Source of the DNA: Selenomonadales bacterium
Lineage (GTDB): Bacteria > Bacillota > Negativicutes > Selenomonadales > Selenomonadaceae
Reading direction: 5' to 3'
Length of the DNA: 64,000 nt
Assembly (NCBI GenBank): GCA_900769615.1
Contig: CAAGHH010000001.1
Span: 6,061 to 70,060 of the forward strand
The position numbers and the translations under genes are program-made. How positions within the stretch are numbered: position 1 is the stretch's first letter; each line of letters opens with the position of its first letter. This document shows, one piece after another, positions 23,245 to 54,668 of the stretch. Under the pieces are notes generated by a model. That model did not search any database. It was not told where the DNA came from and worked only from the letters and a program-made list of their open reading frames with translations.

Positions 23245-23245
23245 T

Positions 23246-23905: not shown

Positions 23906-23907
23906 CA

Positions 23908-24486: not shown

Positions 24487-24496
24487 AAGCTAAAAG

Positions 24497-24538: not shown

Positions 24539-24648
24539 CTTTGTTACTAATTGCAGTTATTTAGTTTCATATTATGATATCCAGATAAAATTTTTTGAAT
24601 ATATTGATTTGATATGAGGTAGTAACCAAAGCTGTCAGAAGAGCTTTC

Positions 24649-24676
24649 TTGACAAATCGAAAAATCACCTTATAAT
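24649..24676 (+). promoter_or_regulatory. Sigma-A-like promoter TTGACA-16-TATAAT for the marR-hlyD-ABC2 operon
   Basis: TTGACA lies at 24649-24654 and TATAAT at 24671-24676. The -10 element lies inside the left arm of the palindrome. Confidence 0.55.
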
Positions 24677-24716
24677 AGATAGTTAGAAAACTAACTATCT
24701 ATTATAAGGTGATTTT
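24661..24716. promoter_or_regulatory. Perfect 56-bp palindrome of two 26-bp arms and a 4-bp spacer; putative MarR operator and/or RBS-sequestering hairpin
   Basis: The sequence aaaatcaccttataatagatagttag aaaa ctaactatctattataaggtgatttt ends 1 nt before the marR ATG 24718 and contains the RBS aaggtg. Confidence 0.6.
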
Positions 24717-24717
24717 T

Positions 24718-25203: not shown

Positions 25204-25226
25204 ATAGAGAAAGAGAGGATTTAGAA

Positions 25227-26321
25227 ATGAATGTAAGACAAAAAGCAACACGGGCTGGAATCGTTTTTATAACCTTGTTGTTGCTTGGTGGATTAATTCT
25301 TATGTATAAGGGAAACGATGCTTTGGTATTGGCTACAGAGAAAAAAGAGGGCATATTGACGGCAGAGCAGATCAAGATGTCGTTTGATTCGGTCAGTGGA
25401 CGCTTAATAAAGGAGCATGTCAAGGATGGTGATTTTGTTAAAAAAGGTGATATCATTATGGAACTTGATGCTACTGATACCGATCTTTCCATTAAGAAAC
25501 TGAAAGCACAAATTGCGCAGTTAGATGCACAGATACGCTCTGCTAGTGGAACTCAAGGTATTAGCTATCAGAAGGCTGATAATGATGCAGCCCAGAGCAG
25601 TCGCCAGCTGTCTCAACAGCAGGCAGCTGTTTCAGCCGCCAATGCAACCCTAAAGAACGCAAGGATTGACTACAACCGTAAAGTAGATCTTTTCAATGTT
25701 GGTGCTATTGCCCAGAGTCAGCTAGATGATGCAGAAATGACACTTAATGTAGCAGAATCTAATTTAGATCAGCAAAATCAGCTTTTGCAGAAATTACAGA
25801 CTGCATATAATGGCAGTGCTAGTGATACCATCGGTCAGGCTCGTCAGGCAGCAGCTAATATGAGTAATGATATTGATTCGCTTACTAATCAGAGACAGGC
25901 TTTGGAGATTCAGCTAAATGAGCTGCAGGTTACCAAGGAACGTCTTACACTTCGTGCACCGGAGGATGGCAAAGTTTTGAAAGTTTTGGCTAAAGAGGGT
26001 GAAATGATTTCGTCATCGACGCCGGTAGTTCTTTTAGAAAGCAGTCACAGTTATTTCGATATTTATATTAGTGAAGAGCAGGCTGCAAATCTTAGTGAAG
26101 GACAGGTAATTGCTGGGCATACTGTAGCTGGTGATCACAAGGTAACTGGAACCATACGCTTGCTGACACAGGCACCTGGTTTTGCTGATCTCAAGCAGAC
26201 TCGCGAGAAAGGGCAGTCTGACCTTTCAGCATTTCAGGTTCGCATATATGTTGACCCGCAGGATGGTATAATCCCGGGCATGACCATTGGGGTGAAAGAT
26301 AGTGAATTCCTTAAAAGATGA
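25227..26321 (+). CDS. HlyD-family membrane-fusion/periplasmic adaptor protein
   Basis: N-terminal TM segment, a biotinyl/lipoyl-like hairpin (GDFVKKGDIIMELD), a long Q/A-rich coiled coil and a C-terminal beta domain. Confidence 0.7.
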   Translation: MNVRQKATRAGIVFITLLLLGGLILMYKGNDALVLATEKKEGILTAEQIKMSFDSVSGRLIKEHVKDGDFVKKGDIIMELDATDTDLSIKKLKAQIAQLDAQIRSASGTQGISYQKADNDAAQSSRQLSQQQAAVSAANATLKNARIDYNRKVDLFNVGAIAQSQLDDAEMTLNVAESNLDQQNQLLQKLQTAYNGSASDTIGQARQAAANMSNDIDSLTNQRQALEIQLNELQVTKERLTLRAPEDGKVLKVLAKEGEMISSSTPVVLLESSHSYFDIYISEEQAANLSEGQVIAGHTVAGDHKVTGTIRLLTQAPGFADLKQTREKGQSDLSAFQVRIYVDPQDGIIPGMTIGVKDSEFLKR

Positions 26322-36061: not shown

Positions 36062-36415
36062 ATGTATACAAAAGAAATGTATGTAACAAGAATAAAAATA
36101 ATTGCCCTTAGTCAGATTCGTAATATTTTGGATGCGGTGAAGCAAACACCAGCTGGATTCCGCAAAGATACTGTAGAGTATCTGGAGGCTATGTATTACA
36201 TAGTTGATAATATGACGTCGGAGCGTTTAGCTGAGATAGTTAATACAGTTCATGATAGTTATGTTGAGCAAGGCATGGACGATGATGGCTATGTTGCTGA
36301 TTCATTGATGATGATTGCTTTAGCTGAATATCAAAATGAATTAGGTGAGCGTAATATTTACGATATGGGCTGGGATCGTATGGTTGAAGATTTCTTCCGT
36401 ACCGCTATAGCTTAA
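36062..36415 (+). CDS. Hypothetical small acidic protein
   Basis: A 117-aa ORF with coding-like composition and no recognizable motif. Confidence 0.4.
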   Translation: MYTKEMYVTRIKIIALSQIRNILDAVKQTPAGFRKDTVEYLEAMYYIVDNMTSERLAEIVNTVHDSYVEQGMDDDGYVADSLMMIALAEYQNELGERNIYDMGWDRMVEDFFRTAIA

Positions 36416-36556
36416 TAAAATAGCTTTTCTTTCATCAAATTTAAAATAAATTGTCATCTGGAAAAAACTTCTGCTTATTAGCAGGAGTTTTTTTGTGTCT
36501 CAACGAAAGTAGTGGTAAATAGTAGCGTGATAGCAAACAAAAGGAGGTATTGTTTT

Positions 36557-37141
36557 ATGCCAATGTACAGAAAGTCGATGCTGGTTTTAATATTATTGCT
36601 GCTGGCGGGGATTGGCGGAACGCTGTATGGTTTATATGGTCAGGAAAAAATGGATACCTTGGATTGTGCCGAAGAATTGCCAGAAAATAAAGCTGCCGTG
36701 AGTATTACCGTATATGTTACTGGTGCGGTAAATAATCCTGGCCTGGTTACAGTTGCCGAAAATTCACGATTGGCAGATGCCGTTAATAAGGCTGGTGGTC
36801 TTTTGCCTACTGCGGATAGTGAAAAAGTAAATATGGCACAGGTCGTTAAGGATGGTCAGCAGCTGAAAATACCAGAAAAAAATACTGATGAAAGTAAAGA
36901 TAGTTCAAGAGGTGCAAGTAAAAAAAATAATAGTCAGCAAGATAAAAATTCATTAGTAAATATCAATACGGCTAGTGAAAAGGAATTAGACTCACTGCCT
37001 GGCATTGGTCCGGCTATGGCTAAGCGTATTGTTGAGTATCGGGAAAGTAATGGCAGTTTTCAATCAGTAGCGGATTTAAAAAAAATAAAAGGAATTGGCG
37101 AAGCCAAATTTAATAAGTTGCAGGATAAGATTTGTATTTGA
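36557..37141 (+). CDS. comEA: Competence protein ComEA (HhH DNA-binding)
   Basis: N-terminal TM segment, a SLBB-like region (AVSITVYVTGAVNNPG) and tandem helix-hairpin-helix INTASEKELDSLPGIGPAMAKRIVEYR. The start is ATG 36557. Confidence 0.85.
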   Translation: MPMYRKSMLVLILLLLAGIGGTLYGLYGQEKMDTLDCAEELPENKAAVSITVYVTGAVNNPGLVTVAENSRLADAVNKAGGLLPTADSEKVNMAQVVKDGQQLKIPEKNTDESKDSSRGASKKNNSQQDKNSLVNINTASEKELDSLPGIGPAMAKRIVEYRESNGSFQSVADLKKIKGIGEAKFNKLQDKICI

Positions 37142-37157
37142 GGCAAAGGGGCAGAGC

Positions 37158-39566
37158 ATGGGACAGCATCCAGAAGCTTTTTTAGCAGGTATCTTAACTT
37201 GTTTTGGGTTTGGTATTGTTATAGCAAAATACAGCAGTCTAAATGACACTTTCTTATGGACATTATTGCTTATAGTCGTTGTTATATCGTTATACGGGGG
37301 ATATAAGCGTCAGGCGTGGACATTTATTGCGGTATTAGCTGCTTTTTTTGTTTTAGGTATGCTTAGATGGTTTGGCGCTAATATTCTGCCAGCCAATGAT
37401 ATTTCCGGTTTTGCTAAAGAAAATGTTATATTGCAAGGAATTTTGCGGGAAGAACCACAAATAAGTGGTGATGAAACGGATGGCTACCGGGTGCGTTATT
37501 TAGTAAAAGCTGTGCAGGTGAAAAAGCAAGCTAAAGGCGAGGTGACAAAAGTCAGTGGTAATGCGTATATAAACACTTATGTTAAAACTGAGGCAGATAT
37601 TCCTAAGGTTTACATTGGTGATAAAATTACGGCTAGTGGCAAGATAAGACTGCCGAAAAGCTATCATAATCCTGGTCAGCTTGATATTAAAAACCTGCTT
37701 TATACGCAGGGGATAACAGCGATGCTTACAGCTGGCAAGGGAGGGATAAAGGTTGAAGCCGTGGATACGGCGGCTTTTTTGCGCTGGATAGTAAAAGTTC
37801 GTGAGCATTATCGGCAAAGCATGGAATCTGTGATGCCTAGAGAGGATGCTTCGGCTATTTTTGCGATGCTTTTTGGCGGTTATGGTGGAATAAAGTCGGA
37901 ATTATTAGAAGCTTTTACGGTGACTGGAATAGTACATATATTGTCAGTATCTGGCTCGCATATAAGTTTAATTGCCGCGGTTATGGCGGCTTTGGCGGGA
38001 GCCTTCAGGCTGCCACGGCTGGCAGCTGCGATTTTGGTAATAACGACCATCGTTATTTATAGTATATTAGCTGGTTGTGTGCCGCCAGTAATAAGATCGG
38101 CCATTATGGGCGGGCTGACCTTTTTGGCACTAGCTATGGATAGGGAGCGCGATGCCAGGTATATTTTGCTTTTAACAGGTCTGGTGATGCTCATTATTTC
38201 ACCACTCCTGTTATTTAATATCAGCTTTGAGCTTTCGTTTTTGGCAACGGCTGGGCTTTTGTATTTAGCACCAGTGTTAAGAAGATTTTTTAGCCAGCAT
38301 GGCTGTAATGACTTTATAGCGGCTGGTTTGGCGATAACAATAGCGGCGCAATTGGCAACGCTGCCGATTTTAGCTTGGTATTTTAATCAATTATCGCTGG
38401 TGGCGTTACTAGCTAATCTGGTGGTAGTACCGATTGTAGAAATAATTATAATTATTGGGCTTTTGGCGGGAGTGCTGGCTTTAATTATGCCATTTTTAGG
38501 AAAAATAGTTTTTGGTGTCGACAGCTTGTTATTAGGTTTGGTTTATGAACTAACCAGACGCTTAGCGAGTATACCGTTTAGTCAGATTTGGCTGCCAGCA
38601 TTAAATGTTTTTTATGCATCGCTCTACTATCTGTTGTTAGGAAGTTTGCTGTTAACTAAAAATTGGCGCGATAAGCTTGTTTATTGGCTTAAAGCTAAAC
38701 GAAATATATTGCTTATTGGTTTTGCCGTATTTTTTATATTTAATTTAGCAAATTATTTAGTTCGTCCGCTGGAAATGGCAGTGCATTTTGTAGATGTTGG
38801 TCAAGGGGACTGCGTTTTGGTAATAACTCCACATGGCAAAGCGATGCTGTTTGATACGGGCGGAAGCAGGGATAGTAATTTTGATGTTGGTCAAAGAGTA
38901 TGTGTGCCATATCTGCGTCATTATGGTATTCTTGAATTGCCAGCGGTATTTTTAACCCATGCGCATGAGGATCATGCTGCTGGCTGCAAAGCTGTTTTGC
39001 ACCAATTAAATGTCGGGCATGTCTATACCGCAGCAGAAGGGCTGGAGGCTTATGCTAGCAGTATGAAGCTTGGCTTAGGTGATGAAGTTATAAATAAAAT
39101 CACAGCGGTTAAGGAAGGCAAGGTTTTTTATTTGGATGGCGTGAAAGTAGAAGTTATATTTGCGCCCCAATTAACTGCTGCCAATAATGTAACTGGTAAT
39201 GAAATTTCTAATGTTTATCGCATAAGTTATGGCAAGGCCAGCTTTTTAATAACTGGCGATATGACTAAGGAAAAGGAAAAAGAAATGCTTGAGGCAGGGA
39301 TAAATCCAGCTAGTACGGTATTAAAAGCCGGGCATCATGGCAGCGATACCTCAAGTTCAGCCGAGTTTTTAGAAGCAGTAAAGCCAGCTTATGCGGTATT
39401 TTGTGTAGGTGCTGATAACAGCTTTGGTCATCCTAAACCCAAAGTGCTAGCCAGATATGCGGCTAGCAGTATAAAAATTTTTCGTACTGATGAAGATGGT
39501 GCAGTGGTGTTTCATACTGATGGTGATAAAATGCGGGTAGAAACGTATAACGGGAGGATGGGATAA
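37158..39566 (+). CDS. comEC: DNA internalization competence protein ComEC/Rec2
   Basis: Polytopic membrane core plus a C-terminal MBL domain (HAHEDHAAG). It sits after comEA. The start is probably ATG 37158. Confidence 0.85.
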   Translation: MGQHPEAFLAGILTCFGFGIVIAKYSSLNDTFLWTLLLIVVVISLYGGYKRQAWTFIAVLAAFFVLGMLRWFGANILPANDISGFAKENVILQGILREEPQISGDETDGYRVRYLVKAVQVKKQAKGEVTKVSGNAYINTYVKTEADIPKVYIGDKITASGKIRLPKSYHNPGQLDIKNLLYTQGITAMLTAGKGGIKVEAVDTAAFLRWIVKVREHYRQSMESVMPREDASAIFAMLFGGYGGIKSELLEAFTVTGIVHILSVSGSHISLIAAVMAALAGAFRLPRLAAAILVITTIVIYSILAGCVPPVIRSAIMGGLTFLALAMDRERDARYILLLTGLVMLIISPLLLFNISFELSFLATAGLLYLAPVLRRFFSQHGCNDFIAAGLAITIAAQLATLPILAWYFNQLSLVALLANLVVVPIVEIIIIIGLLAGVLALIMPFLGKIVFGVDSLLLGLVYELTRRLASIPFSQIWLPALNVFYASLYYLLLGSLLLTKNWRDKLVYWLKAKRNILLIGFAVFFIFNLANYLVRPLEMAVHFVDVGQGDCVLVITPHGKAMLFDTGGSRDSNFDVGQRVCVPYLRHYGILELPAVFLTHAHEDHAAGCKAVLHQLNVGHVYTAAEGLEAYASSMKLGLGDEVINKITAVKEGKVFYLDGVKVEVIFAPQLTAANNVTGNEISNVYRISYGKASFLITGDMTKEKEKEMLEAGINPASTVLKAGHHGSDTSSSAEFLEAVKPAYAVFCVGADNSFGHPKPKVLARYAASSIKIFRTDEDGAVVFHTDGDKMRVETYNGRMG

Positions 39567-42151
39567 TGGAAGAAGTATTGACGCAGAAACCAAATGACAG
39601 ACAAAAAGAAGCTATTGGAACGCTGGATAAAAATATTTTATTACTAGCACCAGCTGGTACTGGCAAGACCAATACTTTAGCGGGGCGGGTAGCCAATATA
39701 TTATTACAGAAACAGGCATTACCGGAGGAAATACTTTGTCTGACATTTACCAATAAGGCTTGTCGGGAGATGCAGGCTAGAATAATAGAAAAAATTGGTC
39801 TGGCAGGCAAAAAAGTGGTAGTTAAGACATTTCATGGCTTTTGTTATGATGTAATAAAAAACGAAACAAAAAGAAAATTGGATGTATTTGCCGATTTTAC
39901 CATTTTTGATGAAACTGACTGCCAAGGCTTGATCGAAGAAGTAACTGATAAATTTCAGTCTAAAGCTTTGCAGAATTTAATAGTGCAGCTAAAAGAAAAA
40001 CGCGCCGAATATGCGCTGTTTTCGGATGACAGCGAAGCTGATTATACTAAAGCTTTAGAAAAATTAATTGCTGAAGATAGTGAGAGTCTGTGCAAAGAAT
40101 GTAATAGCTATTTTAAATTTGACAAGCAATTATTTAATTATTGGCAACAGCATGGCGCTAAAATAACTGCCAATTATGATAAACGCCTTCATGAGCTGCA
40201 TGGGCTGGATTTTACGGATCTTATAACCAATGTCTATCAGCTGTTTCAGCAACCGGCTGTGGCTAAGCGGTGGACTGAACGGTTTGCTTTTATAAATATT
40301 GATGAGGTGCAGGATACCAGCCGCTTGGAATATGACATTATATCGCAGATATTTGGCAATTCATATTTGTTATTATGCGGTGATTATTTTCAGACTATAT
40401 ATGAATGGCGCGGTTCGGATCCAGTATATATATTAAAAAAGTATGAGCGTGAATATAGTCCTTTGCGGATAGTGCTTTATGAAAATTACCGTTCGACGCA
40501 GGTCTTGCTTAATGCCTCCTTTGCTTGTTTGAAACATTTGTTTCCAGATTTGGTAGCAACATTGTATCCTGATGGTATGCAGGCAGCAAGTAAAGAAATT
40601 GGACAGCCGATAACCCTGAAAGGTGCCATGTATGTTAGCGAGGAGGCGCAGTGGATTTATAATACGATTCAGAAATTGCCGGAAAAAAATTATTCGCGAA
40701 TCTGCATACTAACCCGTAACAATAGATATAATAGGGTTTTATCGGATAATTTTGCTTCGCTCAGCTATTTATTGCCAGCGGCGCAAAGAATCCCTTTTAT
40801 GATAATTGAAGAAGCTAAGTTTTATCGTCGTCAGGAGATAAAGGATGCGCTAGCCTTTTTAAAGCTCATAGTCAATAAACATGATGAAGCCAGTCTTATC
40901 AGGATTTTAAACCGCTTTGGCAAAGGCATAGGACCAATGAAGATAAAACAAATTACTGCCAATGAGTACCGTGATGCGGGGATAAGGCTAACGGATTTTA
41001 TTGATGGTAATGCTATCAGTCATGGTGACCCGTTTACGCTTTTGACTTGCGAATTAGCTAAGGACAATGTGGTAGTATTTGATGTTGAAGCTACTGGTGT
41101 CGACACAACTAGTGATGAAATTATTCAAATAGCTGGTGTCAGGCTTAATAAAGATGGTCAAGTAAAGGCTGAATTTAATCGGCTGCTAAAGCCAACGAAA
41201 AGTGTAGGCGATTCAGAGGCAGTTCATGGTTTTAGTGATGAATATTTGCAGGAAAATGGTGAAGATCCAGCTAAGGTACTCAGTGACTTTTGTGCTTTTG
41301 CTAAGGGGGCGGTGATAGTCGGGCACAATGTGAGTTATGATTTAAGCATTTTAGCTAGTCAGCTGGGCAGGTTAAAGCTGCCAGAACTTTTTTATTTAGA
41401 ATATTATGATACGCTTGATATTTTTCGGCGGTTTTATCCTAATTTGCCTAATCATAAACTGGAATACTTGGGAAAATTTTGTCAGGTTAAGCATGAATCA
41501 TCACATGATGCCTTTGATGATATTTTAGCTACAGCTGAGATTTTATTATATGCGCTAAAGCAAAAGATTGAACCGCAGGCAGCTAAGCGACGGATGCTTA
41601 TGCAGAAATGGTGGGATGTTTTTGCACCGTTAGCAGCTAAAATAAAGGAATTTCGTCAAGTTGCTTATAAAATAAGGTTAGCTGATCTGTTAGTTGAGAT
41701 TGTATTAAAGGGAGGACTGCAAGCATATTACCAAAAAGAAACTAAGCGCATGGAAAATTTGCGCAATTTATTCCGAAATACGAAAGCAATGGATGATATA
41801 AATATGTCGCCTAAGGATATGATTACGCATTTTTTACGTTATACGACGCTGTCTAATACTGAACTTGATCTTTTACTGCAAAAACAGCAAATTCCAATCA
41901 TAACAGTTCATCAAGCTAAAGGCTCAGAATTTGATTATGTTTTTTTAGCTGGTTTGCAAGAAAATGATTTTCCTATATTCAATGCGGAGGAAAATGGCTG
42001 CTTGGCAGAAGAAGCCCGGCTGTTTTATGTCGCTATTACTAGAGCTAAAAAAAAGCTGTTTTTATCTTGGTGTCAAAATAATAATGGTCGTTATCGGCGT
42101 ATGAGCCGTTTTTTAAAGAGTATTCCGCGAGAGTACATAGATAATGTTTAA
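39566..42151 (+). CDS. UvrD/PcrA-family helicase with a DnaQ-like DEDDh 3'-5' exonuclease inserted between helicase motifs IV and V
   Basis: Helicase motifs run in order: APAGTGKT, TFTNKACREM, DEVQD, GDYFQTIYEWRGS and NYRST. The Exo I, II and III blocks (FDVEATG, HNVSYDLSIL, HDAFDD) follow, and then motifs V and VI (ITVHQAKGSEFD, YVAITRAKKKL). Confidence 0.75.
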   Translation: MEEVLTQKPNDRQKEAIGTLDKNILLLAPAGTGKTNTLAGRVANILLQKQALPEEILCLTFTNKACREMQARIIEKIGLAGKKVVVKTFHGFCYDVIKNETKRKLDVFADFTIFDETDCQGLIEEVTDKFQSKALQNLIVQLKEKRAEYALFSDDSEADYTKALEKLIAEDSESLCKECNSYFKFDKQLFNYWQQHGAKITANYDKRLHELHGLDFTDLITNVYQLFQQPAVAKRWTERFAFINIDEVQDTSRLEYDIISQIFGNSYLLLCGDYFQTIYEWRGSDPVYILKKYEREYSPLRIVLYENYRSTQVLLNASFACLKHLFPDLVATLYPDGMQAASKEIGQPITLKGAMYVSEEAQWIYNTIQKLPEKNYSRICILTRNNRYNRVLSDNFASLSYLLPAAQRIPFMIIEEAKFYRRQEIKDALAFLKLIVNKHDEASLIRILNRFGKGIGPMKIKQITANEYRDAGIRLTDFIDGNAISHGDPFTLLTCELAKDNVVVFDVEATGVDTTSDEIIQIAGVRLNKDGQVKAEFNRLLKPTKSVGDSEAVHGFSDEYLQENGEDPAKVLSDFCAFAKGAVIVGHNVSYDLSILASQLGRLKLPELFYLEYYDTLDIFRRFYPNLPNHKLEYLGKFCQVKHESSHDAFDDILATAEILLYALKQKIEPQAAKRRMLMQKWWDVFAPLAAKIKEFRQVAYKIRLADLLVEIVLKGGLQAYYQKETKRMENLRNLFRNTKAMDDINMSPKDMITHFLRYTTLSNTELDLLLQKQQIPIITVHQAKGSEFDYVFLAGLQENDFPIFNAEENGCLAEEARLFYVAITRAKKKLFLSWCQNNNGRYRRMSRFLKSIPREYIDNV

Positions 42152-42302
42152 ACGTGTATACAGTATTAATTGTCACAATAGTACATCTTGGGTAAACTAG
42201 TGTACATTTTAAAATACTTATAGTATAATGATACCTGACAGTTGACACAGTTAGTGTTAAATTATACCTAAACATGATACAACTAAAGAAGGGGCGATTA
42301 TT

Positions 42303-43665: not shown

Positions 43666-43697
43666 AGAAATTAAAACGTCGATGCAGTAGTGTCGGC
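43666..43697 (+). terminator. Probable rho-independent terminator after gdhA
   Basis: An imperfect stem with G-U pairs (aacgucgau/gucggcguu) followed by a U6 run. Confidence 0.45.
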
Positions 43698-43795
43698 GTT
43701 TTTTATTATTTATCGTTTGGTTATGCATGTTATAATAATTAGTGTTCTTATGATTGGTTTAAAATATTGCTTAAATTAGTTAATGGAGTATAAAA

Positions 43796-44842: not shown

Positions 44843-46945
44843 ATGGGGATAACAGGTAGCATGAGAGAAAATAACAAGGAAAGTTTAACGCAAAAAGTTG
44901 TTTTAGCTGGCAAGTATGGCTTTTGGTATAAAGATTTAAAGAATTTATTTGAAAAAGAGAATTGGGATTTTTTTTTGCTGGATAAAAGCTATCCGGAACC
45001 GCGGGAATTGTTTCGGATTCAAAATATAAATGTATTGCTTTATGCTGTGGATTTCCGGCAAGATTTAATTAATGGAACTGATTCTAATAAAAAGCTGCTG
45101 GATTTTTTGCGACTGGCTCAGGAAAATCATGTTGAGCGAGTATATTTATTATCGACGGTAGAAGCTATTCCCGTTGGTGATAAAATTATCAATCAAATGG
45201 CACATATAGCGGAAAATATTTTGCAGGATTGGTCAAGTTCAGCTGGTATCGCAGTCACGGTTATAAGATTGCCGGAAATTTATGGACTAGGAGCTGATAG
45301 CTGTGATGGCTGGGTTGCTAGATGGATGAATGCGCTTTATGATGGTGCGATGACTTACGATATTCCTGCCGGTGAAGGCAAACGTTGTTTTTTGTATGTT
45401 GATGATGCAGTTTATGGTATATATAAAGCTGTAGCTAAAGGTGCGACCAGTAAAGAAATAAATTTAGTAGCAGATAATGGTGTTAATGGCAATGCCTTTA
45501 AATTATATTTCCGCGAGGCGTTGCAGGAATTGCCACAGCTATTGCAAGATAGTACAAAAGCTCCTGGGTATGATTATCCCGTGCTGGATGCAGCAGCCGC
45601 TAAAAAAGAACTTGATTGGCAGGAAAAATATCCCCTTGAAATTGGGCTGAAATTATATTGGAGCAAGCTGAAGCTGAAAAAAAGTGAAGTTACAGCTGAT
45701 AGCGATGATGATAATAAGTGGCAGCGGCTAAAGGAGACGATAGTTCCTTATTTGGAAAATAGTGCGGGCTTTCTGTTAATGACCGCCATAATGTATTTTC
45801 AAGGCAATTCGCCGGTAAATTCGTTATTTTACTTTGATATGAATTTTATTTATATTGGCGCTATGGGATTATTGTATGGCAAAACCCAGTCGATTTTGGC
45901 GATGGTGTTATCATCATTGCTGCTTATTTACAGTCTGCTTATAAATGGCAGTGAACTAATTGCTATTTTTTATGTGCCAGTCAATTTACTGCATTTGACG
46001 GCCTATCTTTTTACCGCCATCATTACAGGTTATTTTGCTGACAGTCGTGCCCATGAACGTGAGGCTGCTAATTGGCATTTAGAGCAGGCCCAAAATCGCT
46101 ATAATTTTTTGCGAAAATTATACGATACCAATATTGAAATAAAGGAACGGCTTTATAAGCAGATAGTAAATTCTGATGACAGTATCGGGCGTATTTACCG
46201 GATAGTCCGCCAGTTAGATAGCGTTGAAATAGAAAATGTGTTTACGCAGGCTGCGAAGGTTACGGCTCAGATATTGGATGCAGCTAATATTGCCGTCTAC
46301 GTTACCAGTAAGGATGGCTGGTATTTAAGACAGAAGGTAAGAATTGGCAAGCTGACTTTAAATCAACCGCGTTCATTGCGAGTAGCTGATAATACGTGGC
46401 TTAAAATTTTGTTAACTGATAAGATGATTTTCGTCAATCGTGATTTTATCAGTAACGTGCCGGATATGGCGGTGCCGATTGTTTATGAGGACAAGGTAAT
46501 TGCTGTAATTGCGGTCATGGGATTAAAATTTGAACAATGGAGTGTTTATCAGCAAAATTTGTTGTCAGTAACGGCTAGGCTGATAGCATCCTCAATGGGA
46601 CGAGCTTACCAGTATGAAGCAGAAATTCAAGCGCGTCGTTACCTTGATGAAACCAGAATTTTAAATGAAAATGAATTTCGTAAGGTAATAGCTGAGATAA
46701 GAAAGCGGCACAATCTGGATAGTAATTATTCGTCAGCGTTATTGAGACTGGTACCAGGCAAGCTGTCATTAGCGGAGATTGATGCTGGTTTGGCAAGTGT
46801 TATTCGCAATGAAGACTTTATTGGTATAATTAATGGTGATGTTTATATTATCTTGACTGATAGCGATGAAAATATAACTTATATGGTACAACAGCGGCTA
46901 AAACAGGCAGGCTTTGCAACTGAGGTCAGTGAGGAGCACTTATGA
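44843..46945 (+). CDS. PelD-like protein of the Gram-positive type: degenerate SDR domain, four TM segments, GAF domain and degenerate GGDEF domain
   Basis: 700 aa. The N-terminal Rossmann-like region has no GxxGxxG. It has a central TM block, a C-terminal cytoplasmic region with an RxxD-like RRYLD, and a pel-cluster context (E-A-F-G follow). Confidence 0.55.
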   Translation: MGITGSMRENNKESLTQKVVLAGKYGFWYKDLKNLFEKENWDFFLLDKSYPEPRELFRIQNINVLLYAVDFRQDLINGTDSNKKLLDFLRLAQENHVERVYLLSTVEAIPVGDKIINQMAHIAENILQDWSSSAGIAVTVIRLPEIYGLGADSCDGWVARWMNALYDGAMTYDIPAGEGKRCFLYVDDAVYGIYKAVAKGATSKEINLVADNGVNGNAFKLYFREALQELPQLLQDSTKAPGYDYPVLDAAAAKKELDWQEKYPLEIGLKLYWSKLKLKKSEVTADSDDDNKWQRLKETIVPYLENSAGFLLMTAIMYFQGNSPVNSLFYFDMNFIYIGAMGLLYGKTQSILAMVLSSLLLIYSLLINGSELIAIFYVPVNLLHLTAYLFTAIITGYFADSRAHEREAANWHLEQAQNRYNFLRKLYDTNIEIKERLYKQIVNSDDSIGRIYRIVRQLDSVEIENVFTQAAKVTAQILDAANIAVYVTSKDGWYLRQKVRIGKLTLNQPRSLRVADNTWLKILLTDKMIFVNRDFISNVPDMAVPIVYEDKVIAVIAVMGLKFEQWSVYQQNLLSVTARLIASSMGRAYQYEAEIQARRYLDETRILNENEFRKVIAEIRKRHNLDSNYSSALLRLVPGKLSLAEIDAGLASVIRNEDFIGIINGDVYIILTDSDENITYMVQQRLKQAGFATEVSEEHL

Positions 46946-47823
46946 GCATTTTGTTAATTTTAATACTGCACATTATGCTTACGTTGCTGTATTGGGGATT
47001 TAATAGCCGTTATAGCAGTGTTATTGAAAATTTAACGGAAACGATACTGGTGCTGTTAATTCCATTTTTTGGCATAATTATAATGGTATTATTTAAAATA
47101 ATCAGCAAAGCCTTTGGGCTAGCTAAAGGTGAAAATCATGAAGCTGAAAGGAAAAATATTGACATTATCAGTAAAGTTGAGCTTAATGATGATATAATTC
47201 CTTTAAATGATGCTTTTTTGCTTGATGATACTCAGCGTAAAAGACAGTATTTTACGGAATCCATTAAACAAGCTGTAATTGATAATCAAAGAATTTTGCA
47301 AATGGCAGTTAAAGAGCCGGATAGGGAAATTGCTTATTATGCAGTTTCTATGCTGACAACGCGCATGGAAAAATTGGAAAGTGAACTTTTGGCCGAGGAA
47401 AAAGCCTTAGCCAAGTCAGAGAAAAAAGATGACATTGAGCTTTTGACTGACTATGCCCGTTTGTTAAAGGAGTATCTAGCGCAAAAGCAATTTGTTGATC
47501 ATGTTACTTGGCGTAACAAACAGGTTGTTTATATTAAAGTATTAACCAAACTTTGCCAGCTGTTGCCTGATGAAGAAAAATATTATGCTGATTTAATTGA
47601 TCAGCTTTTGGATGTGGCTGAGTATAAAGAAGCTGAAGCAGTCTGTGAAGCTTATCAGCAAAAATTTCCCGCTAAGGAAGCAGCTTTTCTGTTTTTTATC
47701 AAACTTTATCAGGCTTGGCGCAAGCCACAAAAGCTGCAAGCTAAAATACGAGCTTTAAAGGAAAGTTCACTGCAGCTTTCCTGGCAGGGATTGCAAACAA
47801 TCCGCTTTTGGGACCGAGGATAA
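46942..47823 (+). CDS. PelE-like membrane/TPR-like protein
   Basis: Two N-terminal TM segments and then a helical repeat region. The position between the pelD-like and pelA-like genes supports the call. Confidence 0.45.
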   Translation: MSILLILILHIMLTLLYWGFNSRYSSVIENLTETILVLLIPFFGIIIMVLFKIISKAFGLAKGENHEAERKNIDIISKVELNDDIIPLNDAFLLDDTQRKRQYFTESIKQAVIDNQRILQMAVKEPDREIAYYAVSMLTTRMEKLESELLAEEKALAKSEKKDDIELLTDYARLLKEYLAQKQFVDHVTWRNKQVVYIKVLTKLCQLLPDEEKYYADLIDQLLDVAEYKEAEAVCEAYQQKFPAKEAAFLFFIKLYQAWRKPQKLQAKIRALKESSLQLSWQGLQTIRFWDRG

Positions 47824-49643
47824 TTATGAATAAGCGAAATATAATTTTTATATGTTTGCTGGTCGTTCTTTTAGGCTGTTTTTTTCAATTTAATCGTTTA
47901 GATGGTCTATTAAAGCTATCGCCAGTACTTAATAATGATTTTAGTAATGATAATGTAGTTACATCACCTGATACTAAGCTGGCACGGGATAAGTATTTAA
48001 TAATCTATGATAAGCTTGATGTTGCTAGCGTTTTAACCAGGCATAATGTTACCGATATGCTGCAACGGCAAAAAAAAGATGTAACTATCGCAACACTTAC
48101 TGAAAACTTGAGTTATGATGACCTGGAAAAGTATAAAGGAATATTTGTCATATCAGGCAAGCTGGCTGAATTATCATCATGGGAGCAATTGACTGCTTAT
48201 GTGGCAGCTGGTGGTACCGTAGCGTTATTGCAGCATCCAGACGAGGGTGCGTTAGAGGATGAATTAAGCACCATTGGGATCAGGTCATTAGATGGAATTG
48301 AGCATGTTTTTGGTTTGCAAATAAATAATGATTTTATCCTAGGCGCCAAAGATTTTAAAATGAATGATGATAGCAATTATAATACGGAAGCATGTCGGGT
48401 TGAGCTTATGCCGGAGGCTGAGGCTGTGGCAGAGTCTAATGATGGCGTACCACTGATATGGACGCTGACAGCAGGTGAGGGCAAATTTATTGTTTACAAT
48501 GGTATGGAACGGGATAGTAAATCCAATATGGGCTTATATGCAGCCATTGCTAGCAATATGGGGGAAGACAGTATTTATCCAGTGCTGGCGAGCAAGGTGA
48601 TGTTTATTGATGATTTTCCAGCCCCGACGCCCGAAGGTAATTTTTCCAAAATATATAATGAATATCATCTGTCAACGGCAGAGTTTTTTCGCAAAATCTG
48701 GTGGCCTTATATGCAGGATAATGCCAAAAAGTATGATTTAAAATATACTGGTCTTATAATTGAAAGCTATGGCAATCAAGTGAGTGGCGATTTTACTGAG
48801 CTTAGCGGCCGCTCGGCTAGAGATAATCTCATAGTTTATGGTCGTGAGCTGTTGGCTATGGGGGGCGAACTTGGTATTCATGGTTATAATCATCAGTCAC
48901 TGGTATTGTCAGCACAAACTCCTGGGGTCTTAGATTATGTTCCTTGGTCAAGTCAAAATGATATGGTAAAGGCGCTGACAGAGCTTAAGCGTTATGTAAC
49001 GGCGGTTTATCCTGATTATGATTTTCGGGTGTATGTGCCACCATCTAATATTATGAGCAAGGAAGGGCGGGACGCTGTAAAAAAAGCGTTCTCGAGTATA
49101 AAAATATTTGCTTCCTTGTATGATGGACAAAAAGAGCCATTTGTTTATTATCAAAATTTTGAACGCTGTGAAGATGGAACCTTTAATATTCCGCGAGTTA
49201 CTGCTGGTTATATTCCTTCAGACAGTATGAAATGGGATGCCATAAGTGCCATTAATGATATGGGAATTATGACGCATTTTGTGCATCCGGATGAGCTTTT
49301 TTATGAAGAAAGCGAAAATTATAATTGGCAGCAAATGGCAGATTCCATGCATAATTTTTTGGAATTTTTTACTAATCGTTATGGCTGGCTGCAAGCCGAA
49401 ACCGCTAGCGAAGCGATGGAAGCTTTGAATGATTATACCGAGATGGATTATCGGGTGGCTAGATTTAACGATCGGTTGGAAATTTATAGCTGGAATTATA
49501 GTGCTCCCTTGCATTTTATAATCCGCAGTCACAAGGTGCCAGCTAAAACTGCTGGTTGTGAGGTTAAAGTTATTGATGATAATGCTTATATGGTGACTGT
49601 TAGTGAGCAAAAGGCCGTCATCAAATGGGAGGAGGAAAAATAA
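47808..49643 (+). CDS. DUF2194-like protein; candidate polysaccharide deacetylase/hydrolase (PelA-like role)
   Basis: 611 aa with an N-terminal signal anchor and a pel-cluster position. Confidence 0.45.
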   Translation: MGPRIIMNKRNIIFICLLVVLLGCFFQFNRLDGLLKLSPVLNNDFSNDNVVTSPDTKLARDKYLIIYDKLDVASVLTRHNVTDMLQRQKKDVTIATLTENLSYDDLEKYKGIFVISGKLAELSSWEQLTAYVAAGGTVALLQHPDEGALEDELSTIGIRSLDGIEHVFGLQINNDFILGAKDFKMNDDSNYNTEACRVELMPEAEAVAESNDGVPLIWTLTAGEGKFIVYNGMERDSKSNMGLYAAIASNMGEDSIYPVLASKVMFIDDFPAPTPEGNFSKIYNEYHLSTAEFFRKIWWPYMQDNAKKYDLKYTGLIIESYGNQVSGDFTELSGRSARDNLIVYGRELLAMGGELGIHGYNHQSLVLSAQTPGVLDYVPWSSQNDMVKALTELKRYVTAVYPDYDFRVYVPPSNIMSKEGRDAVKKAFSSIKIFASLYDGQKEPFVYYQNFERCEDGTFNIPRVTAGYIPSDSMKWDAISAINDMGIMTHFVHPDELFYEESENYNWQQMADSMHNFLEFFTNRYGWLQAETASEAMEALNDYTEMDYRVARFNDRLEIYSWNYSAPLHFIIRSHKVPAKTAGCEVKVIDDNAYMVTVSEQKAVIKWEEEK

Positions 49644-51073
49644 TGCGGATCTGTTTACTCACCGAAGGTTCGTATCCTTATGTTGTTGGCGGTGTTTCCT
49701 CCTGGACGCAAATGCTTATAAAAGGTCTTCCCGAGTATGAATTTGTGGTTTATTCTATTGGTGCCGAGGAGAAAGACCGCGGTAAATATAAATACAAGCT
49801 GCCGGATAATCTGGTGAACATACAGGAAGAATTTCTTGATGATATACTAAATCTGAAATCCCAAGGGATGAAAGATAATATTCTGTCAGCCGAAGCTAAA
49901 GAAACGTTATATGATTTAGTAACTGGTGAAAAAGAATTAAACGTAAAGAAACTGGCTAAAATTTTTCATAAACCAAAGCAGGATCGATGGGCGGCGCTGG
50001 ATATTTTTATGAGCAGTGATTTTTTTGATATAATCCAGCAGGTATATGAGGAAAAATATAGTTATTTGCCCTTTACCGATTTTTTTTGGACGCTTCGTTC
50101 AATGCTATTGCCGTTATTTTATTTATTACAGCGTCCGCTGCCGCAGGCTGATGTTTATCATAGTGTAGCTACTGGTTATTGTGGTGTTATCGGTGCGATG
50201 GCGGCGGAGGTTTATCATAAACCGTTTTTAATAACGGAGCATGGTATTTATTCTAGGGAACGGGAAGTTGAAATAATAAAAAGTGATTGGGCTAAAGGCG
50301 ATTTTAAATCAGTATGGATTAAATATTTTTACAATCTAGCTAAATTGTCGTATGCAACAGCCAAAAATGTTTATACTTTATTTGAACATAATGCCGAAAT
50401 TGAGCAGGATTTAGGCTGCGATCCGAGCAAGATAAGTATTATTCCTAATGGTATCCACATGGAACGGTTCGCTGATATTGGTGAATTAAAGCCTGATCAT
50501 AATGGTTTTAACATCGGTGCGGTGGTAAGAGTAGTGCCAATAAAGGACATTATTACGCTATTGCGGGCATTTTTCCTTGTCAAGCAGGAGCTGCCGCAGG
50601 CTAAGCTCTATATAATGGGCGGGCTGGATGAAGATCCGGAATATTATCAGCTATGCCAGCAGACTATAGAAATGCTGACGATTAAGGATGTAACATTTAC
50701 TGGTTCCGTAAATGTTGTTGAATATATACCCAAGATGGATTTACTGATGTTATCAAGCATTAGTGAGGGTCAGCCATTGGCCGTGCTTGAAGGACAAGCT
50801 GCCAGGCGTCCCTTTATTACTACTAACGTTGGCTGTTGCCGGGAACTTATTTATGGTGACAGTAATGATGATTTGGGAGAAGCTGGTATCGTAGTAGCGC
50901 CAATGGATTTTGAAGGCATGGCGCAGGCGATGATAAAATTAGGTCAAAATTTTGAGCTGCGGCGCCAAATGGGGAATATCGGCTATGAGCGAGTTAAACG
51001 CAGTTATACCTATGAACAATTTATTGAAGCTTATCGCCGAATCTATAATGCAGCAAAGGAGGCATTAGGCTGA
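49643..51073 (+). CDS. PelF-like GT4 glycosyltransferase
   Basis: N-terminus MRICLLTEGSYPYVVGGVSSW (DUF3492/PelF-like) and a GT4 EX7E region (EGQPLAVLEGQAARRP). A TAATG overlap joins it to the upstream gene. Confidence 0.8.
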   Translation: MRICLLTEGSYPYVVGGVSSWTQMLIKGLPEYEFVVYSIGAEEKDRGKYKYKLPDNLVNIQEEFLDDILNLKSQGMKDNILSAEAKETLYDLVTGEKELNVKKLAKIFHKPKQDRWAALDIFMSSDFFDIIQQVYEEKYSYLPFTDFFWTLRSMLLPLFYLLQRPLPQADVYHSVATGYCGVIGAMAAEVYHKPFLITEHGIYSREREVEIIKSDWAKGDFKSVWIKYFYNLAKLSYATAKNVYTLFEHNAEIEQDLGCDPSKISIIPNGIHMERFADIGELKPDHNGFNIGAVVRVVPIKDIITLLRAFFLVKQELPQAKLYIMGGLDEDPEYYQLCQQTIEMLTIKDVTFTGSVNVVEYIPKMDLLMLSSISEGQPLAVLEGQAARRPFITTNVGCCRELIYGDSNDDLGEAGIVVAPMDFEGMAQAMIKLGQNFELRRQMGNIGYERVKRSYTYEQFIEAYRRIYNAAKEALG

Positions 51074-52551
51074 TGGCAGGGGTTGGCTTTGAACTAAAAA
51101 AACTGTTTACGGCTCGCACCGCAGCTGGTCATATCAAGGCTTATTCGTATTCAGCTATAATTACGGCCGGACCGTTTGCATTGATGACAAGTATGGTGCT
51201 AGGGATTCAGCTATGGTATAGTTATTTACAGCTGCCAAGTGCAATAACGCAAATATTTACGGCTACTGTGGTATATGCATTTGTATTTTCGCAAATCCTT
51301 ACTAGTGGTTTTACAATGGTAATTACCAGATATGTAGCTGATTCATTGGCCATCGGGCGTTATCAGGATATGATGGCCTCATTATTTGGTATAAGTGCTG
51401 TTTTTACGGTTATTGGCAGTATTACCGCTGGTATTTTTTTCTATGATAAACCACTTCCGTTAACTACTAAGATTTTAGCTTATTTGTTTTTAATACAATT
51501 AATGCTTACTTGGGCACAAAGCGTATATTTATCAGCTATTAAGCGTTATGAGCGGCTTCTGTTTAGTTATGCCGCAGGCGTTGTTACCAGTATCGGTTTA
51601 GCAGGATTTTTTTTAGCGTATACGGCTATTTCTCCCGAACAGGCGGGACTGCTGGCAATTGATATCGGTATGGCAATTATAGTATTGCTGTTTTTTCTCA
51701 ATATCGTGGCTTATTATGGTATGGGAAAAACGGGAATGAATTTTGCTTTTTTAGTTTATTTTGAAAGGCATTGGCGACTGTTTTTTATTTCAGCTAGTTA
51801 CACGCTAGGTCTGTTTTTGCCCAATATTTTGATTTGGCTTGGACCTTGGGGGGTAACTGTAGCTGATACTTTTCGTTATGCGCCAGTGTATGATGTTTTG
51901 ACATTTTATGCTTTTTTATCAATTTTGCCATTGATGATGTTATTTGTGGTATCGGTTGAAACTAATTTTTATGAGCGTTATGCAGTTTATTTTTCCTATA
52001 TAACCGGTAAAGGCAGCTTTCGTGCCATTGATGATGCCCGCAAGGATTTGTTGCATACGCTGTGGTTTGAGCTGAGGCATATAGTTGAATTTCAGCTGGT
52101 GTTTACTTTGATAGCTTTAGCTTTAGGCAATTACGCATTGTCCTGGTCAGGGATAACTTACGACCAGGTAAATATGTATAACATATTATTGCTGGCAGCC
52201 TTCTTTACGGGATTGTTGCAATTAATTTATATTTTGCTGATTTATTTTGATTGTCAAAAGGAAGTATTAAAAATTTCATTAATATATTTTGGTGGCAATC
52301 TGGTTTTGGGATTTATAGGGTTAAAGTATGTCGGTCCAGCTAGTTATGGCTTTACTTTTTTTATCGTAGCAGCGATAAGTTTTTTGACCGGTTTTGTTAA
52401 GTTAAGCAACTTTGGCAAACGGATAAACTATTATGTTTTTTGTTCACAGCCGGTATTTTATAATCCTGTCCAAGGTTTTTTGACGCGATTAGTAAAAAAA
52501 ATATATAAGGATCGTTATGTTGACCTGGAACAGGCAAGAGGTGATAAATAA
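51073..52551 (+). CDS. PelG-like polytopic membrane protein (MATE-like exopolysaccharide transporter)
   Basis: N-terminus MAGVGFELKKLF..AYSYSAIITAGPF is typical of PelG. It has about 12 TM segments. Confidence 0.75.
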   Translation: MAGVGFELKKLFTARTAAGHIKAYSYSAIITAGPFALMTSMVLGIQLWYSYLQLPSAITQIFTATVVYAFVFSQILTSGFTMVITRYVADSLAIGRYQDMMASLFGISAVFTVIGSITAGIFFYDKPLPLTTKILAYLFLIQLMLTWAQSVYLSAIKRYERLLFSYAAGVVTSIGLAGFFLAYTAISPEQAGLLAIDIGMAIIVLLFFLNIVAYYGMGKTGMNFAFLVYFERHWRLFFISASYTLGLFLPNILIWLGPWGVTVADTFRYAPVYDVLTFYAFLSILPLMMLFVVSVETNFYERYAVYFSYITGKGSFRAIDDARKDLLHTLWFELRHIVEFQLVFTLIALALGNYALSWSGITYDQVNMYNILLLAAFFTGLLQLIYILLIYFDCQKEVLKISLIYFGGNLVLGFIGLKYVGPASYGFTFFIVAAISFLTGFVKLSNFGKRINYYVFCSQPVFYNPVQGFLTRLVKKIYKDRYVDLEQARGDK

Positions 52552-54668
52552 TGAGGATGAGTCGCAGCCGGCGGCAAAAATTAATACAAAAAAAAGAGCG
52601 CTGGAAATCATTGGTGAAGCTCTCAATTGGCAGTGTGATTTTGCTAAGAGCAACGAATGTGGCGGCTTCATCGTTTAATACTTTTTACGAAGTAAGTGAT
52701 AGTATTGCTGTTATGGTAAATGAGCGGGATAAGATAAGTAATTATCAGGCGCTGCAAGCTGAGGTAAAAGCTGCTAAAAGTGAATTACAGCAAGCTGAGG
52801 CAAATCTTATAGCCGCCAGGCAGGATAAGAGCACCGCGGATAAATATTTAGCTGAGGCTAAGGTAAATATTATAGCTGCGCAAAAACATTTAGCTGAGGT
52901 AACTGGTCAATTAGAAACAGCGAAAATAGAAAGTGCTGAAAGAACGCAGGAAGCTATAGCAAGTCAGCAGGCGGTAGCTGATTTTTGGCCACAGATTTAT
53001 GCGAAAGAAAGTGAAATTGCAGAAGCCAGGCAGGAAGAAGCTGCGGTTAATGCTGATTATGCTAGCTTAGTATCAGCTAATAAAGCGCAGCAGGAAGATT
53101 TGGCAAGGCGGATTGAAGAAGCTTGGCAAAGTGTCGATTATAGGAATAACTGTTTGCACGATGTGCAAGCGATGATTGCGGATTTTAAAGCGCAGCAAGC
53201 AGCAAGTGAAGGGGATTTTTATGCTAATCAGGAAAGTTATAATGAACGTTTGCAGGCGATAGCAGACAATATTGATACGCAGGAAAGTGAATTAGACGAT
53301 TTAAATGAGCAGCTTAGTTACTTGGAAGAAGCTAGAGAAGAAGCAGAAAATGCAGAAGCTGATGCTAGGGAATTAGTGCGGGATTTGACTAATGAACTGA
53401 CGGAAGCGAAAAACGATACCAATGAAGCACAAGCTGATGTGGCGCAATCGCAAGCTGAAGCTGATGAAGCAGCAAACAATTTGCGGATAGCAGCTGATGA
53501 CGTAAATAGCAGCAGCGATTATCTAAATAGCTCGGAAAAGGCTTTGGCTGATTTTGGCAACGGTTACGGTTATGCAAGCGGGCTGGAATATTATAATTGG
53601 CGTGACAGCAGCGGCCGTCATGGTCATCAGCTATATAGACCGTTGCAGGCTTATATGAGTGAAAAAAAGTGGGAAGCCGCTATAGAAACTGGCTGGGTAC
53701 AGTCCGCTAGCGGCTATGCTGGGGGTAGTTTTAGTGGTCTTACTAATACGGCACTTAGCGTTACTTATAAAAATGATCATAAAAAAAATACCGTGCATTA
53801 TTCCTTGAGTTTCAATTTACCAACTGGTAAGGACAATGTACGGCAGAGTGCGATGCTGACTGATGAATTGGCACGCTTTACTAGCTTTAGTGAGGGCTTT
53901 AATTATGCACCAGCAGTAACTGTAACGCATTACTTTACCGAAAGGGACAGTCTAAGTGGAAAAATTTCGTATCAGATACGAGGAAATTATCATTATTTAG
54001 CTGATATGAATAATGATAAAGTGCAGATAGGCGAATATTCAAGGGCTGAGTTAAAAGAAGACATAAATCCAGGAGCTGTATTCAGGCAGGATTTGCGGTT
54101 AGCTCATATCGGTGACGAAAGGCAGACAGCGGTGGAACTTACCCATATAAACGCTAGTCATAGTATAGCTAGTTCGTATATCACTGGTATTTGGGATGAA
54201 ACAGGCAACAGGATGTCTAGCCTTTATCTTGGCGGAGCAGGTGTTGGTGAGCACTATGCTAGCTCACGCAATTATGATGCTGAGAGCTGGTGGCTAAAAA
54301 TATTTAATAGGCGGGAATTTTTCAAAGATAATGCTTATTTAACTTATAGTGCGCTTAATTATGACAGTGGTCAGGTAAATTCAGCGCATAGATACTATTT
54401 TGGTACAGGATTATCCAGAAATTTTGACAAAAAACAAGCAGCCTATTTTATTTATAATTATCGACGGACCTTTGGTGATAGTTATGATTGGCAAAGCGGA
54501 CAGCGGACGGGGGATAGTCATCGGCAATCCTTGCTATTAGGCTATAATTATTGTTTGTCAGATAACAATAGTTTAAATTTGAAATTAGAACGCTACATTA
54601 TAAATGAAAAAAACGCGCCTAAGCATAATGGTGTCAATGTAAGTTTGATGTTTAACCGCTCATTTTAA
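52551..54668 (+). CDS. Secreted coiled-coil protein with a C-terminal beta-barrel-like domain; candidate outer-membrane export component
   Basis: Signal-like N-terminus, a ~260-aa A/E/Q-rich coiled coil, then ~370 aa rich in alternating amphipathic strands ending ..VNVSLMFNRSF (C-terminal Phe). Confidence 0.5.
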   Translation: MRMSRSRRQKLIQKKERWKSLVKLSIGSVILLRATNVAASSFNTFYEVSDSIAVMVNERDKISNYQALQAEVKAAKSELQQAEANLIAARQDKSTADKYLAEAKVNIIAAQKHLAEVTGQLETAKIESAERTQEAIASQQAVADFWPQIYAKESEIAEARQEEAAVNADYASLVSANKAQQEDLARRIEEAWQSVDYRNNCLHDVQAMIADFKAQQAASEGDFYANQESYNERLQAIADNIDTQESELDDLNEQLSYLEEAREEAENAEADARELVRDLTNELTEAKNDTNEAQADVAQSQAEADEAANNLRIAADDVNSSSDYLNSSEKALADFGNGYGYASGLEYYNWRDSSGRHGHQLYRPLQAYMSEKKWEAAIETGWVQSASGYAGGSFSGLTNTALSVTYKNDHKKNTVHYSLSFNLPTGKDNVRQSAMLTDELARFTSFSEGFNYAPAVTVTHYFTERDSLSGKISYQIRGNYHYLADMNNDKVQIGEYSRAELKEDINPGAVFRQDLRLAHIGDERQTAVELTHINASHSIASSYITGIWDETGNRMSSLYLGGAGVGEHYASSRNYDAESWWLKIFNRREFFKDNAYLTYSALNYDSGQVNSAHRYYFGTGLSRNFDKKQAAYFIYNYRRTFGDSYDWQSGQRTGDSHRQSLLLGYNYCLSDNNSLNLKLERYIINEKNAPKHNGVNVSLMFNRSF

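Follow-up and report, generated by a model that had tools for sequence, protein, structure and literature searches.

The 64,000 nucleotides of a Selenomonadales bacterium analyzed here (hereafter the window; contig CAAGHH010000001.1) contain a gene that encodes a helicase and an exonuclease in a single polypeptide. The principal finding is how the two are arranged: a DnaQ-like exonuclease domain of the DEDDh type lies nested in the 2B domain of a UvrD/PcrA-type helicase, between helicase motifs IV and V and just after the GIG motif, and not at either end of the protein. Judged by its sequence, the protein is a member of the superfamily 1A (SF1A) UvrD/PcrA/Rep helicases and of the DnaQ-like DEDDh superfamily at the same time. 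Helicase-nuclease fusions such as RecB, AddA, WRN, Dna2 and ExoDinG play central parts in DNA repair and phage defense, and in all of them the nuclease is terminal; what is new here is that it is nested. Databases already list the family, under generic names such as "3'-5' exonuclease" and "UvrD-helicase domain-containing protein", and it is apparently unstudied. It is widespread in Negativicutes of the gut, the rumen and the oral cavity, including Veillonella and Selenomonas. Our preferred reading, which we hold with about even confidence, is that the window protein serves genome maintenance in the Negativicutes as a stand-alone enzyme with a stable chromosomal gene; a 3'-5' SF1A motor, translocating on single-stranded DNA, would carry a catalytically competent 3'-5' DNA exonuclease rigidly in its 2B domain.

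Domain architecture of the helicase-exonuclease

The open reading frame (ORF) runs uninterrupted for 861 amino acids (aa) plus the stop codon (Table 1), and its translation contains every helicase and Exo motif string that a preliminary description of this DNA had quoted. Ahead of the insert these are motif I or Walker A (APAGTGKT, aa 28-35), TFTNKACREM (aa 60-69), motif II (DEVQD, aa 246-250), motif III (GDYFQTIYEWRGS, aa 272-284) and motif IV (NYRST, aa 307-311), and behind it motif V (VHQAKGSEFD) and motif VI (YVAITRAKKKL). Between motifs IV and V stand the Exo I, II and III blocks (FDVEATG, HNVSYDLSIL and HDAFDD), and the predicted catalytic residues of the exonuclease are D506, E508, D592, H647 and D652. 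The GIG duplex-binding motif (aa 455-457, nt 40928-40936) is found within KGIGP at aa 454-458.

The nesting is seen in the Pfam matches. The UvrD-helicase domain (PF00580) covers aa 10-294 (E = 1.4e-58) and UvrD_C (PF13361) matches as one stretch at aa 302-837, from profile position 1 to 349 of 350 (E = 8e-102); within that stretch RNase_T (PF00929) matches at aa 503-660 (E = 5.5e-24, 86 bits against a gathering cutoff of 24). In the alignment with PcrA (PDB 1pjr), aa 4-463 pair with PcrA residues 7-430 and aa 686-858 with residues 461-646, and a few residues past GIG approximately 220 residues stand in for approximately 30 of the PcrA 2B domain. Both comparisons bear out the internal position of the exonuclease that the preliminary description had proposed, and the nested layout is far beyond chance. 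Among the NCBIfam models the insert is closest to the PolC and epsilon proofreading exonucleases (TIGR00573, 72.8 bits against a cutoff of 71.5), and the PolC exonuclease structure 2p1j matches it in a search of PDB sequences (E = 2e-14).

An AlphaFold2 (AF2) model of the protein was built with 26 homologs and has a mean predicted local distance difference test score (pLDDT) of 87.6 and a predicted template modeling score (pTM) of 0.66. Here a helical connector (aa 464-498) leads out of 2B into an alpha/beta exonuclease fold at aa 500-668, and a long return helix (aa 672-700) leads back into 2B. Over aa 464-499 the connector is modeled with a pLDDT of about 85-91, and its residues G472 and D477 are invariant. 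Conservation and confident modeling of the connector argue for a rigid insertion and against a loose tether; the exonuclease would then move with 2B as one body. The top Foldseek structures are PcrA, UvrD, Rep and UvrD1 (TM(target) of 0.63-0.70 for PcrA, UvrD and Rep), and a comparable insert is absent from these best matches among solved structures. A frameshift or a tandem, two-gene artefact is ruled out, because motifs V and VI follow the insert in frame, the homologs (120 among the matches listed) have the same domain set at 846-912 aa and the model is confident; the product is a single polypeptide, as had been claimed.

PcrA, UvrD and Rep (PDB 1pjr, 3pjr, 2is1-2is6, 1uaa) are the best matches of the window protein in sequence as well as in fold, and they have in common with it the 1A/1B/2A/2B core, motifs I-VI and GIG in 2B. 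They differ in that the window protein has exchanged the short 2B segment for the connector and the DEDDh domain, and in that it lacks their C-terminal extension, stopping where PcrA residue ~646-649 of 724 aligns. Its scores lie far below the equivalog cutoffs (345.6 against 911.2 bits for PcrA, TIGR01073; 300 against 1144 for UvrD), which by these profiles sets it apart from the PcrA, UvrD and Rep equivalogs. This bears on the view that the gene is nevertheless the organism's essential PcrA ortholog with an exonuclease insert, serving RecA removal, transcription-replication conflicts and R-loops; the exonuclease might then act on the 3' ends of RNA or DNA in hybrids. In favor of this view, both NCBIfam and PDB searches rank PcrA first, some sources name homologs "PcrA", the gene is present across Selenomonadales and Veillonellales, and no second UvrD-like gene occurs in the 64-kb window, which is a small part of the genome. 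Against these points stand the low equivalog score and the absence of the C-terminal extension, which in PcrA binds RNA polymerase, and the family also occurs in Clostridia that possess other UvrD-like genes, with five matching places in the Acetoanaerobium chromosome record. We regard an orthologous PcrA as quite unlikely.

RecB, AddA and AdnB resemble the window protein in combining a UvrD-like SF1A 3'-5' motor with a nuclease on the 3'-ended strand; they are weaker matches in fold and sequence, and they differ in having a C-terminal PD-(D/E)XK endonuclease domain and in forming heteromeric complexes. Matches to the AddA and RecB models cover the helicase core only and the window protein ends after motif VI, thus without the C-terminal nuclease that would make it RecB/AddA-type. 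Escherichia coli UvrD works with ExoI or ExoX, DnaQ-superfamily 3'-5' exonucleases, in mismatch-repair excision, and in Bacillus subtilis the superfamily 2 (SF2) helicase MrfA and the DEDDh exonuclease MrfB remove the damaged strand; unlike the single polypeptide found here, in both cases the partners are distinct proteins that work in trans. Among documented bacterial fusions of a helicase with a DEDDh domain the nearest is ExoDinG, a Firmicutes DinG with an N-terminal DEDDh exonuclease that is not under LexA control (PMC11981726). It likewise joins a helicase-like ATPase and a DEDDh 3'-5' exonuclease in one polypeptide, but on an SF2 DinG core and by a terminal fusion, whereas the window protein is an SF1A enzyme with the exonuclease nested in 2B. 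Searches of the literature and of solved structures turned up no UvrD-type helicase with an internal DEDDh/DnaQ domain that had been described, solved or assayed. Within the scope of these searches the preliminary description was right not to recognize a characterized enzyme, apart from the generic database names and the fact that one branch of the family is a listed component of candidate UG35 RT (reverse transcriptase) defense systems.

Conservation and distribution of the family

The acidic residues of the Exo motifs, on whose conservation the preliminary description had made its proposal depend, are invariant together with the histidine (D506, E508, D592, H647, D652) in 26 orthologs, down to 48% identity, and the Walker A, DExQ, motif III, IV, V and VI residues are invariant across the same orthologs. 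In a larger set of 143 family sequences, which includes representatives of 50%-identity clusters, G456 of GIG is kept in 124 and DEDDh is intact in 142, which rules out a degenerate pseudo-exonuclease.

The distribution of the architecture was surveyed by HMMER with aa 380-790 as query, a segment spanning both insert junctions, at E <= 1e-30. This exhaustive census gave 204 clusters (50% identity); of the 150 best, nearly all match the whole query in one stretch. The members known come from Negativicutes, Clostridia, cyanobacteria and Bacteroidota. When GTDB was scanned with a single genome for each species, at least 594 stretches were confirmed. The best 80 of these come from Selenomonas, Mitsuokella, Schwartzia, Anaerovibrio, Pectinatus, Propionispira, Megasphaera and Veillonella, with a few from Clostridia (Clostridium frigidicarnis, Sarcina, Filifactoraceae) and from filamentous cyanobacteria (Moorena, Coleofasciculus, ESFC-1, Dactylococcopsis). 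In plasmid records, tblastn revealed further members in Bacteroidota (Prevotella, Phocaeicola, Chryseobacterium), at 24-27% identity and each as a single-piece match over 96-98% of the protein. One of them, a 912-aa protein with approximately 25% identity and an intact DEDDh set, is encoded on the Phocaeicola vulgatus plasmid NZ_CP103198.1 (L082:7884-10622) and is flanked by genes for Fic, RhuM, a helix-turn-helix (HTH) regulator and a recombinase, a mobile or defense-like setting unlike the Negativicutes context.

Judged from these matches the architecture is conserved in at least three bacterial phyla. The insertion point is identical, and the catalytic residues are intact, in the Phocaeicola, Acetoanaerobium, cyanobacterial and Veillonella proteins, and an insertion point shared by such distant members argues for one ancient exonuclease insertion. 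A neighbor-joining tree has two main divisions, the RT-linked cyanobacterial proteins on one side and Clostridia plus Negativicutes on the other. The window protein belongs to a Selenomonas/Mitsuokella subclade and the branching of the Negativicutes approximately follows taxonomy; this clade looks vertically inherited. The GC content of the gene region equals that of its flanks. A phage origin was rejected, no full-length match to the architecture being found in 50,697 phage records.

Genomic neighborhoods and the UG35 reverse transcriptases

In the window the gene stands directly behind comEA and comEC. The comEC stop codon and the helicase ATG overlap by one base, which points to translational coupling, and because of this overlap, the ribosome-binding site (RBS) and the lack of a terminator between them, comEA, comEC and the helicase gene are probably co-transcribed in this genome. 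Strong terminator-like hairpins in the region occur only after serA and after the glutamate dehydrogenase gene (gdh), which lies downstream of the helicase-exonuclease and is itself followed by holA.

The preliminary description took the com genes as a hint that the enzyme could process incoming or damaged DNA. When the neighbors of the window gene were compared by tblastn with 80 loci, the adjacency itself recurred in Selenomonas and Mitsuokella only (13-14 of the 80 loci, in the order comEA-comEC-X-gdh-holA, where X is the helicase-exonuclease), with a comEC-helicase gap of -4 to 2738 nt and other genes sometimes in between. It was not found in the Veillonella, Megasphaera, Pectinatus, Schwartzia, Clostridia, cyanobacterial or Bacteroidota loci. 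In Veillonella the order is dnaX-ybaB-recR-orf83-X followed by a pseudouridine synthase gene, the neighbors differ in each of Megasphaera, Pectinatus, Schwartzia, Propionispira and Clostridia, and three further tree representatives on short contigs gave no clear pattern; no conserved partner gene was found in the Firmicutes loci examined. The link to the com genes is thus local, and a family-wide comEC partnership is ruled out by its confinement to one clade and its variable spacing. Moreover, comEC and holA are already adjacent in Bacillus subtilis, so that the helicase gene and gdh seem to have been inserted into an older block.

An accessory role in competence, with the enzyme processing transforming DNA on entry together with ComEA and ComEC, would fit the position directly downstream of comEA-comEC, with its stop/start overlap, good RBS and lack of an intervening terminator, as well as the same order in about 13 Selenomonas/Mitsuokella loci. 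Even within this one clade, however, gaps of 290-2738 nt and inserted genes occur, elsewhere the adjacency is absent, and the apparent insertion into the comEC-holA block also counts against such a role. In addition, ComEC has a metallo-beta-lactamase nuclease domain of its own, and the transforming strand enters as single-stranded DNA, which a cytoplasmic 3'-5' exonuclease would destroy. The adjacency lends weak support to a competence role, which we consider very unlikely, and it is a caution against reading function from neighbors.

Several smaller features of these loci may be recorded. Just upstream of comEA is an ORF of 117 aa without a Pfam match (window 36062-36415), which is present at the same position in the Selenomonas/Mitsuokella loci at 61-84% identity. 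In Veillonella a conserved ORF of 80-83 aa, also without a Pfam match, lies between recR and the helicase-exonuclease (L045:7728-7979 and 18 other loci); it may be no more than the small gene found after recR in other Firmicutes. One metagenome-assembled genome of Selenomonas ruminantium has a 727-aa ORF with a YxDD motif between comEC and the helicase-exonuclease (L006:5763-7946), which may be a reverse transcriptase of the mobile-element or group II intron type and has no RT_UG35 match. Rates of change also differ within the block: the helicase-exonuclease is approximately 62% identical to its Selenomonas orthologs, comparable to comEC (55%), comEA (58%) and holA (66-70%), and serA (89-92%) and gdh (85-90%) are much more similar in the same loci, the DNA-handling genes evolving considerably faster than the metabolic ones.

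A different association is found in cyanobacteria. Among the PADLOC profiles the window protein best matches the DRT component RTasHel, at E = 1.9e-148 and 494 bits over the full profile, for which PADLOC gives no cutoff. This profile of 675 positions aligns across the exonuclease as an insertion. In five of the seven cyanobacterial loci (L071:4522-7989, L073:814-4287, L072:7614-10685, L074:10445-13504 and L075:10427-13483) the family member directly adjoins a protein of 1018-1157 aa with a reverse-transcriptase domain, which matches RT_UG35 at 1078 and 1398 bits; the latter is encoded upstream in ESFC-1 and Dactylococcopsis and downstream in Moorena, where the two genes overlap. UG35 is known as a Class 1 UG/Abi RT with an N-terminal methylase fusion, associated with "a putative UvrD-like helicase" (cluster 22 of Mestre et al., 2022; PMC9226505). 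By profile score and gene position, the cyanobacterial branch is the UvrD-like helicase partner of the UG35 RTs. The word "exonuclease" is absent from that study, no later paper mentioning UG35 was found in the literature searched, and searches on UG35 and on PcrA in Negativicutes or Veillonella gave nothing relevant beyond it. We see this connection as the most useful new lead of the analysis, as the embedded exonuclease changes expectations of what the candidate UG35 defense system does.

It is necessary to weigh whether the window gene is itself an anti-phage or anti-plasmid helicase-nuclease, a single-gene system degrading invading DNA and a stand-alone relative of the UG35 (DRT-type) helicase component. 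The full-length RTasHel match, the RT_UG35 genes beside most of the cyanobacterial members, the UvrD-like helicase named as UG35 partner by Mestre et al. (2022) and the plasmid-borne Bacteroidota relative among Fic, RhuM and recombinase genes are all consistent with it. The cyanobacterial RTasHel shares its family, its insertion point and an intact DEDDh set with the window protein; it differs in belonging to the other major clade, in scoring 976 bits against the profile, about twice the value of the window protein, and in its RT_UG35 neighbor. With five RT_UG35 proteins as tblastn queries, nothing below E = 0.049 was found in the window and nothing in the non-cyanobacterial loci, including those of Negativicutes and Clostridia; an RT partner was thus rejected, and without an RT the window protein would not be a component of a UG35 system. 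The synteny among core genes, stable at the family level, the probable co-transcription with comEC, the unremarkable composition and the lack of any demonstrated UG35 defense activity in the literature searched also speak against a defense function, which we hold to be unlikely.

Proposed function and other features of the window

A role in genome maintenance is preferred because both catalytic sets are conserved, the neighborhoods in Negativicutes consist of core genes, the tree approximately follows taxonomy, the GC content is like that of the flanks, and neither phage carriage nor, in the window or the Firmicutes loci, an RT_UG35 gene was found. In the proposed mechanism the motor would load at a nick, a gap or a 3' tail and peel off the 3'-ended strand, which the embedded exonuclease would then degrade from its 3' end. 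One polypeptide would thereby do the job of E. coli UvrD plus ExoI/ExoX, or that of RecB/AddA with a different nuclease, and functionally it would also resemble MrfA/MrfB. The architecture, insertion point, conservation and distribution were observed directly; the polarity, a DNA and not an RNA substrate, the cooperation of the two activities and the cellular pathway are inferences. In the UvrD/Rep/PcrA class 2B is the domain that swivels, autoinhibits and contacts the duplex, and we infer for this reason that its rotation probably gates the access of the exonuclease to the 3' end. A nuclease placed inside 2B is accordingly a natural test case for the coupling of 2B conformation to catalysis.

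Several points weigh against this genome-maintenance reading. The insert adjoins the GIG duplex-binding element, i.e., the front of the motor, whereas the tracked strand has its 3' end at the rear; a geometry in which the enzyme degrades what it unwinds is thus not guaranteed. The pTM value leaves the orientation between domains uncertain, related branches occur in defense or mobile-element contexts, and the literature searched holds no biochemistry or genetics of any family member. There is also no sign of SOS control: neither the window nor the regions upstream of the gene in 79 loci showed a LexA/Cheo box, and SOS regulation was rejected on this ground. A bolder extension, which we offer as speculative and rather doubtful, is that the autoinhibitory 2B domain has been turned catalytic, its rotation switching between unwinding and 3'-end degradation. 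Negativicutes and other lineages would then possess, in one protein, a nick-to-gap excision motor for the repair of mismatches, lesions or replication forks, and the same chassis would have been recruited by the UG35 RTs to act on cDNA or RNA:DNA hybrids in defense. Recruitment may also have run the other way, which would make the Negativicutes gene a domesticated defense helicase.

Table 1. Features of the helicase-exonuclease gene, its surroundings and the Pel-type cluster (window coordinates).
Feature	Position	Strand	Basis or remark
Helicase-exonuclease, complete ORF	39566-42151	+	ORF, Pfam, homolog lengths
Helicase domains 1A/1B, aa 10-294, motifs I/Ia/II/III	39593-40447	+	Pfam PF00580, invariant residues
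2A N-terminal part (motif IV) and 2B N-terminal half, aa 302-463, including GIG	40469-40954	+	PcrA/UvrD alignment
Helical connector from 2B to exonuclease, aa 464-499	40955-41062	+	conservation, AF2 model
DnaQ/PolC-type DEDDh 3'-5' exonuclease domain (predicted), aa 500-668	41063-41569	+	PF00929, NCBIfam PolC/DnaQ, PDB 2p1j/9qpc, invariance
Exo I, aa 505-511	41078-41098	+	
Exo II, aa 587-596	41324-41353	+	
Exo III, aa 647-652	41504-41521	+	
Return into 2B: long helix aa 672-700; 2B C-terminal half aa 669-775	41570-41890	+	PcrA alignment, AF2
2A C-terminal part, motifs V (aa 781-790) and VI (aa 821-831)	41891-42148	+	Pfam, PcrA alignment, invariance
comEA (SLBB and helix-hairpin-helix, HhH)	36512-37141	+	upstream neighbor
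comEC (DUF4131, Competence, metallo-beta-lactamase)	37095-39566	+	directly upstream
RBS GGGAGG	39552-39557	+	8 nt before ATG
comEC stop TAA and helicase ATG, one base in common	39564-39566; 39566-39568	+	sequence
Promoter-like site	42201-42229		precedes gdh
First strong terminator-like hairpin downstream	43673-43702	+	after gdh
700-aa epimerase and GAF protein	44843-46945		Pel-type cluster
DUF2194 protein	47808-49643		Pel-type cluster
DUF3492 glycosyltransferase	49625-51073		Pel-type cluster
PelG	51073-52551		Pel-type cluster
705-aa protein, no Pfam match	52551-54668		Pel-type cluster

Two other regions of the window deserve mention. The GC content falls to 0.34-0.38 at positions 17050-26000 (about 0.40-0.45 in the flanks); AT and GC skew are strong there, and neither an Rfam match nor tandem repeats were found. 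Only small ORFs are present from 17.2 to 20.3 kb, followed by a gene for an Eco57I-type N6-adenine methylase (20404-21891) and further ORFs; the whole looks like an acquired restriction-modification or defense island. Downstream of the helicase-exonuclease, positions 44843-54668 look like a Pel-type exopolysaccharide cluster (Table 1).

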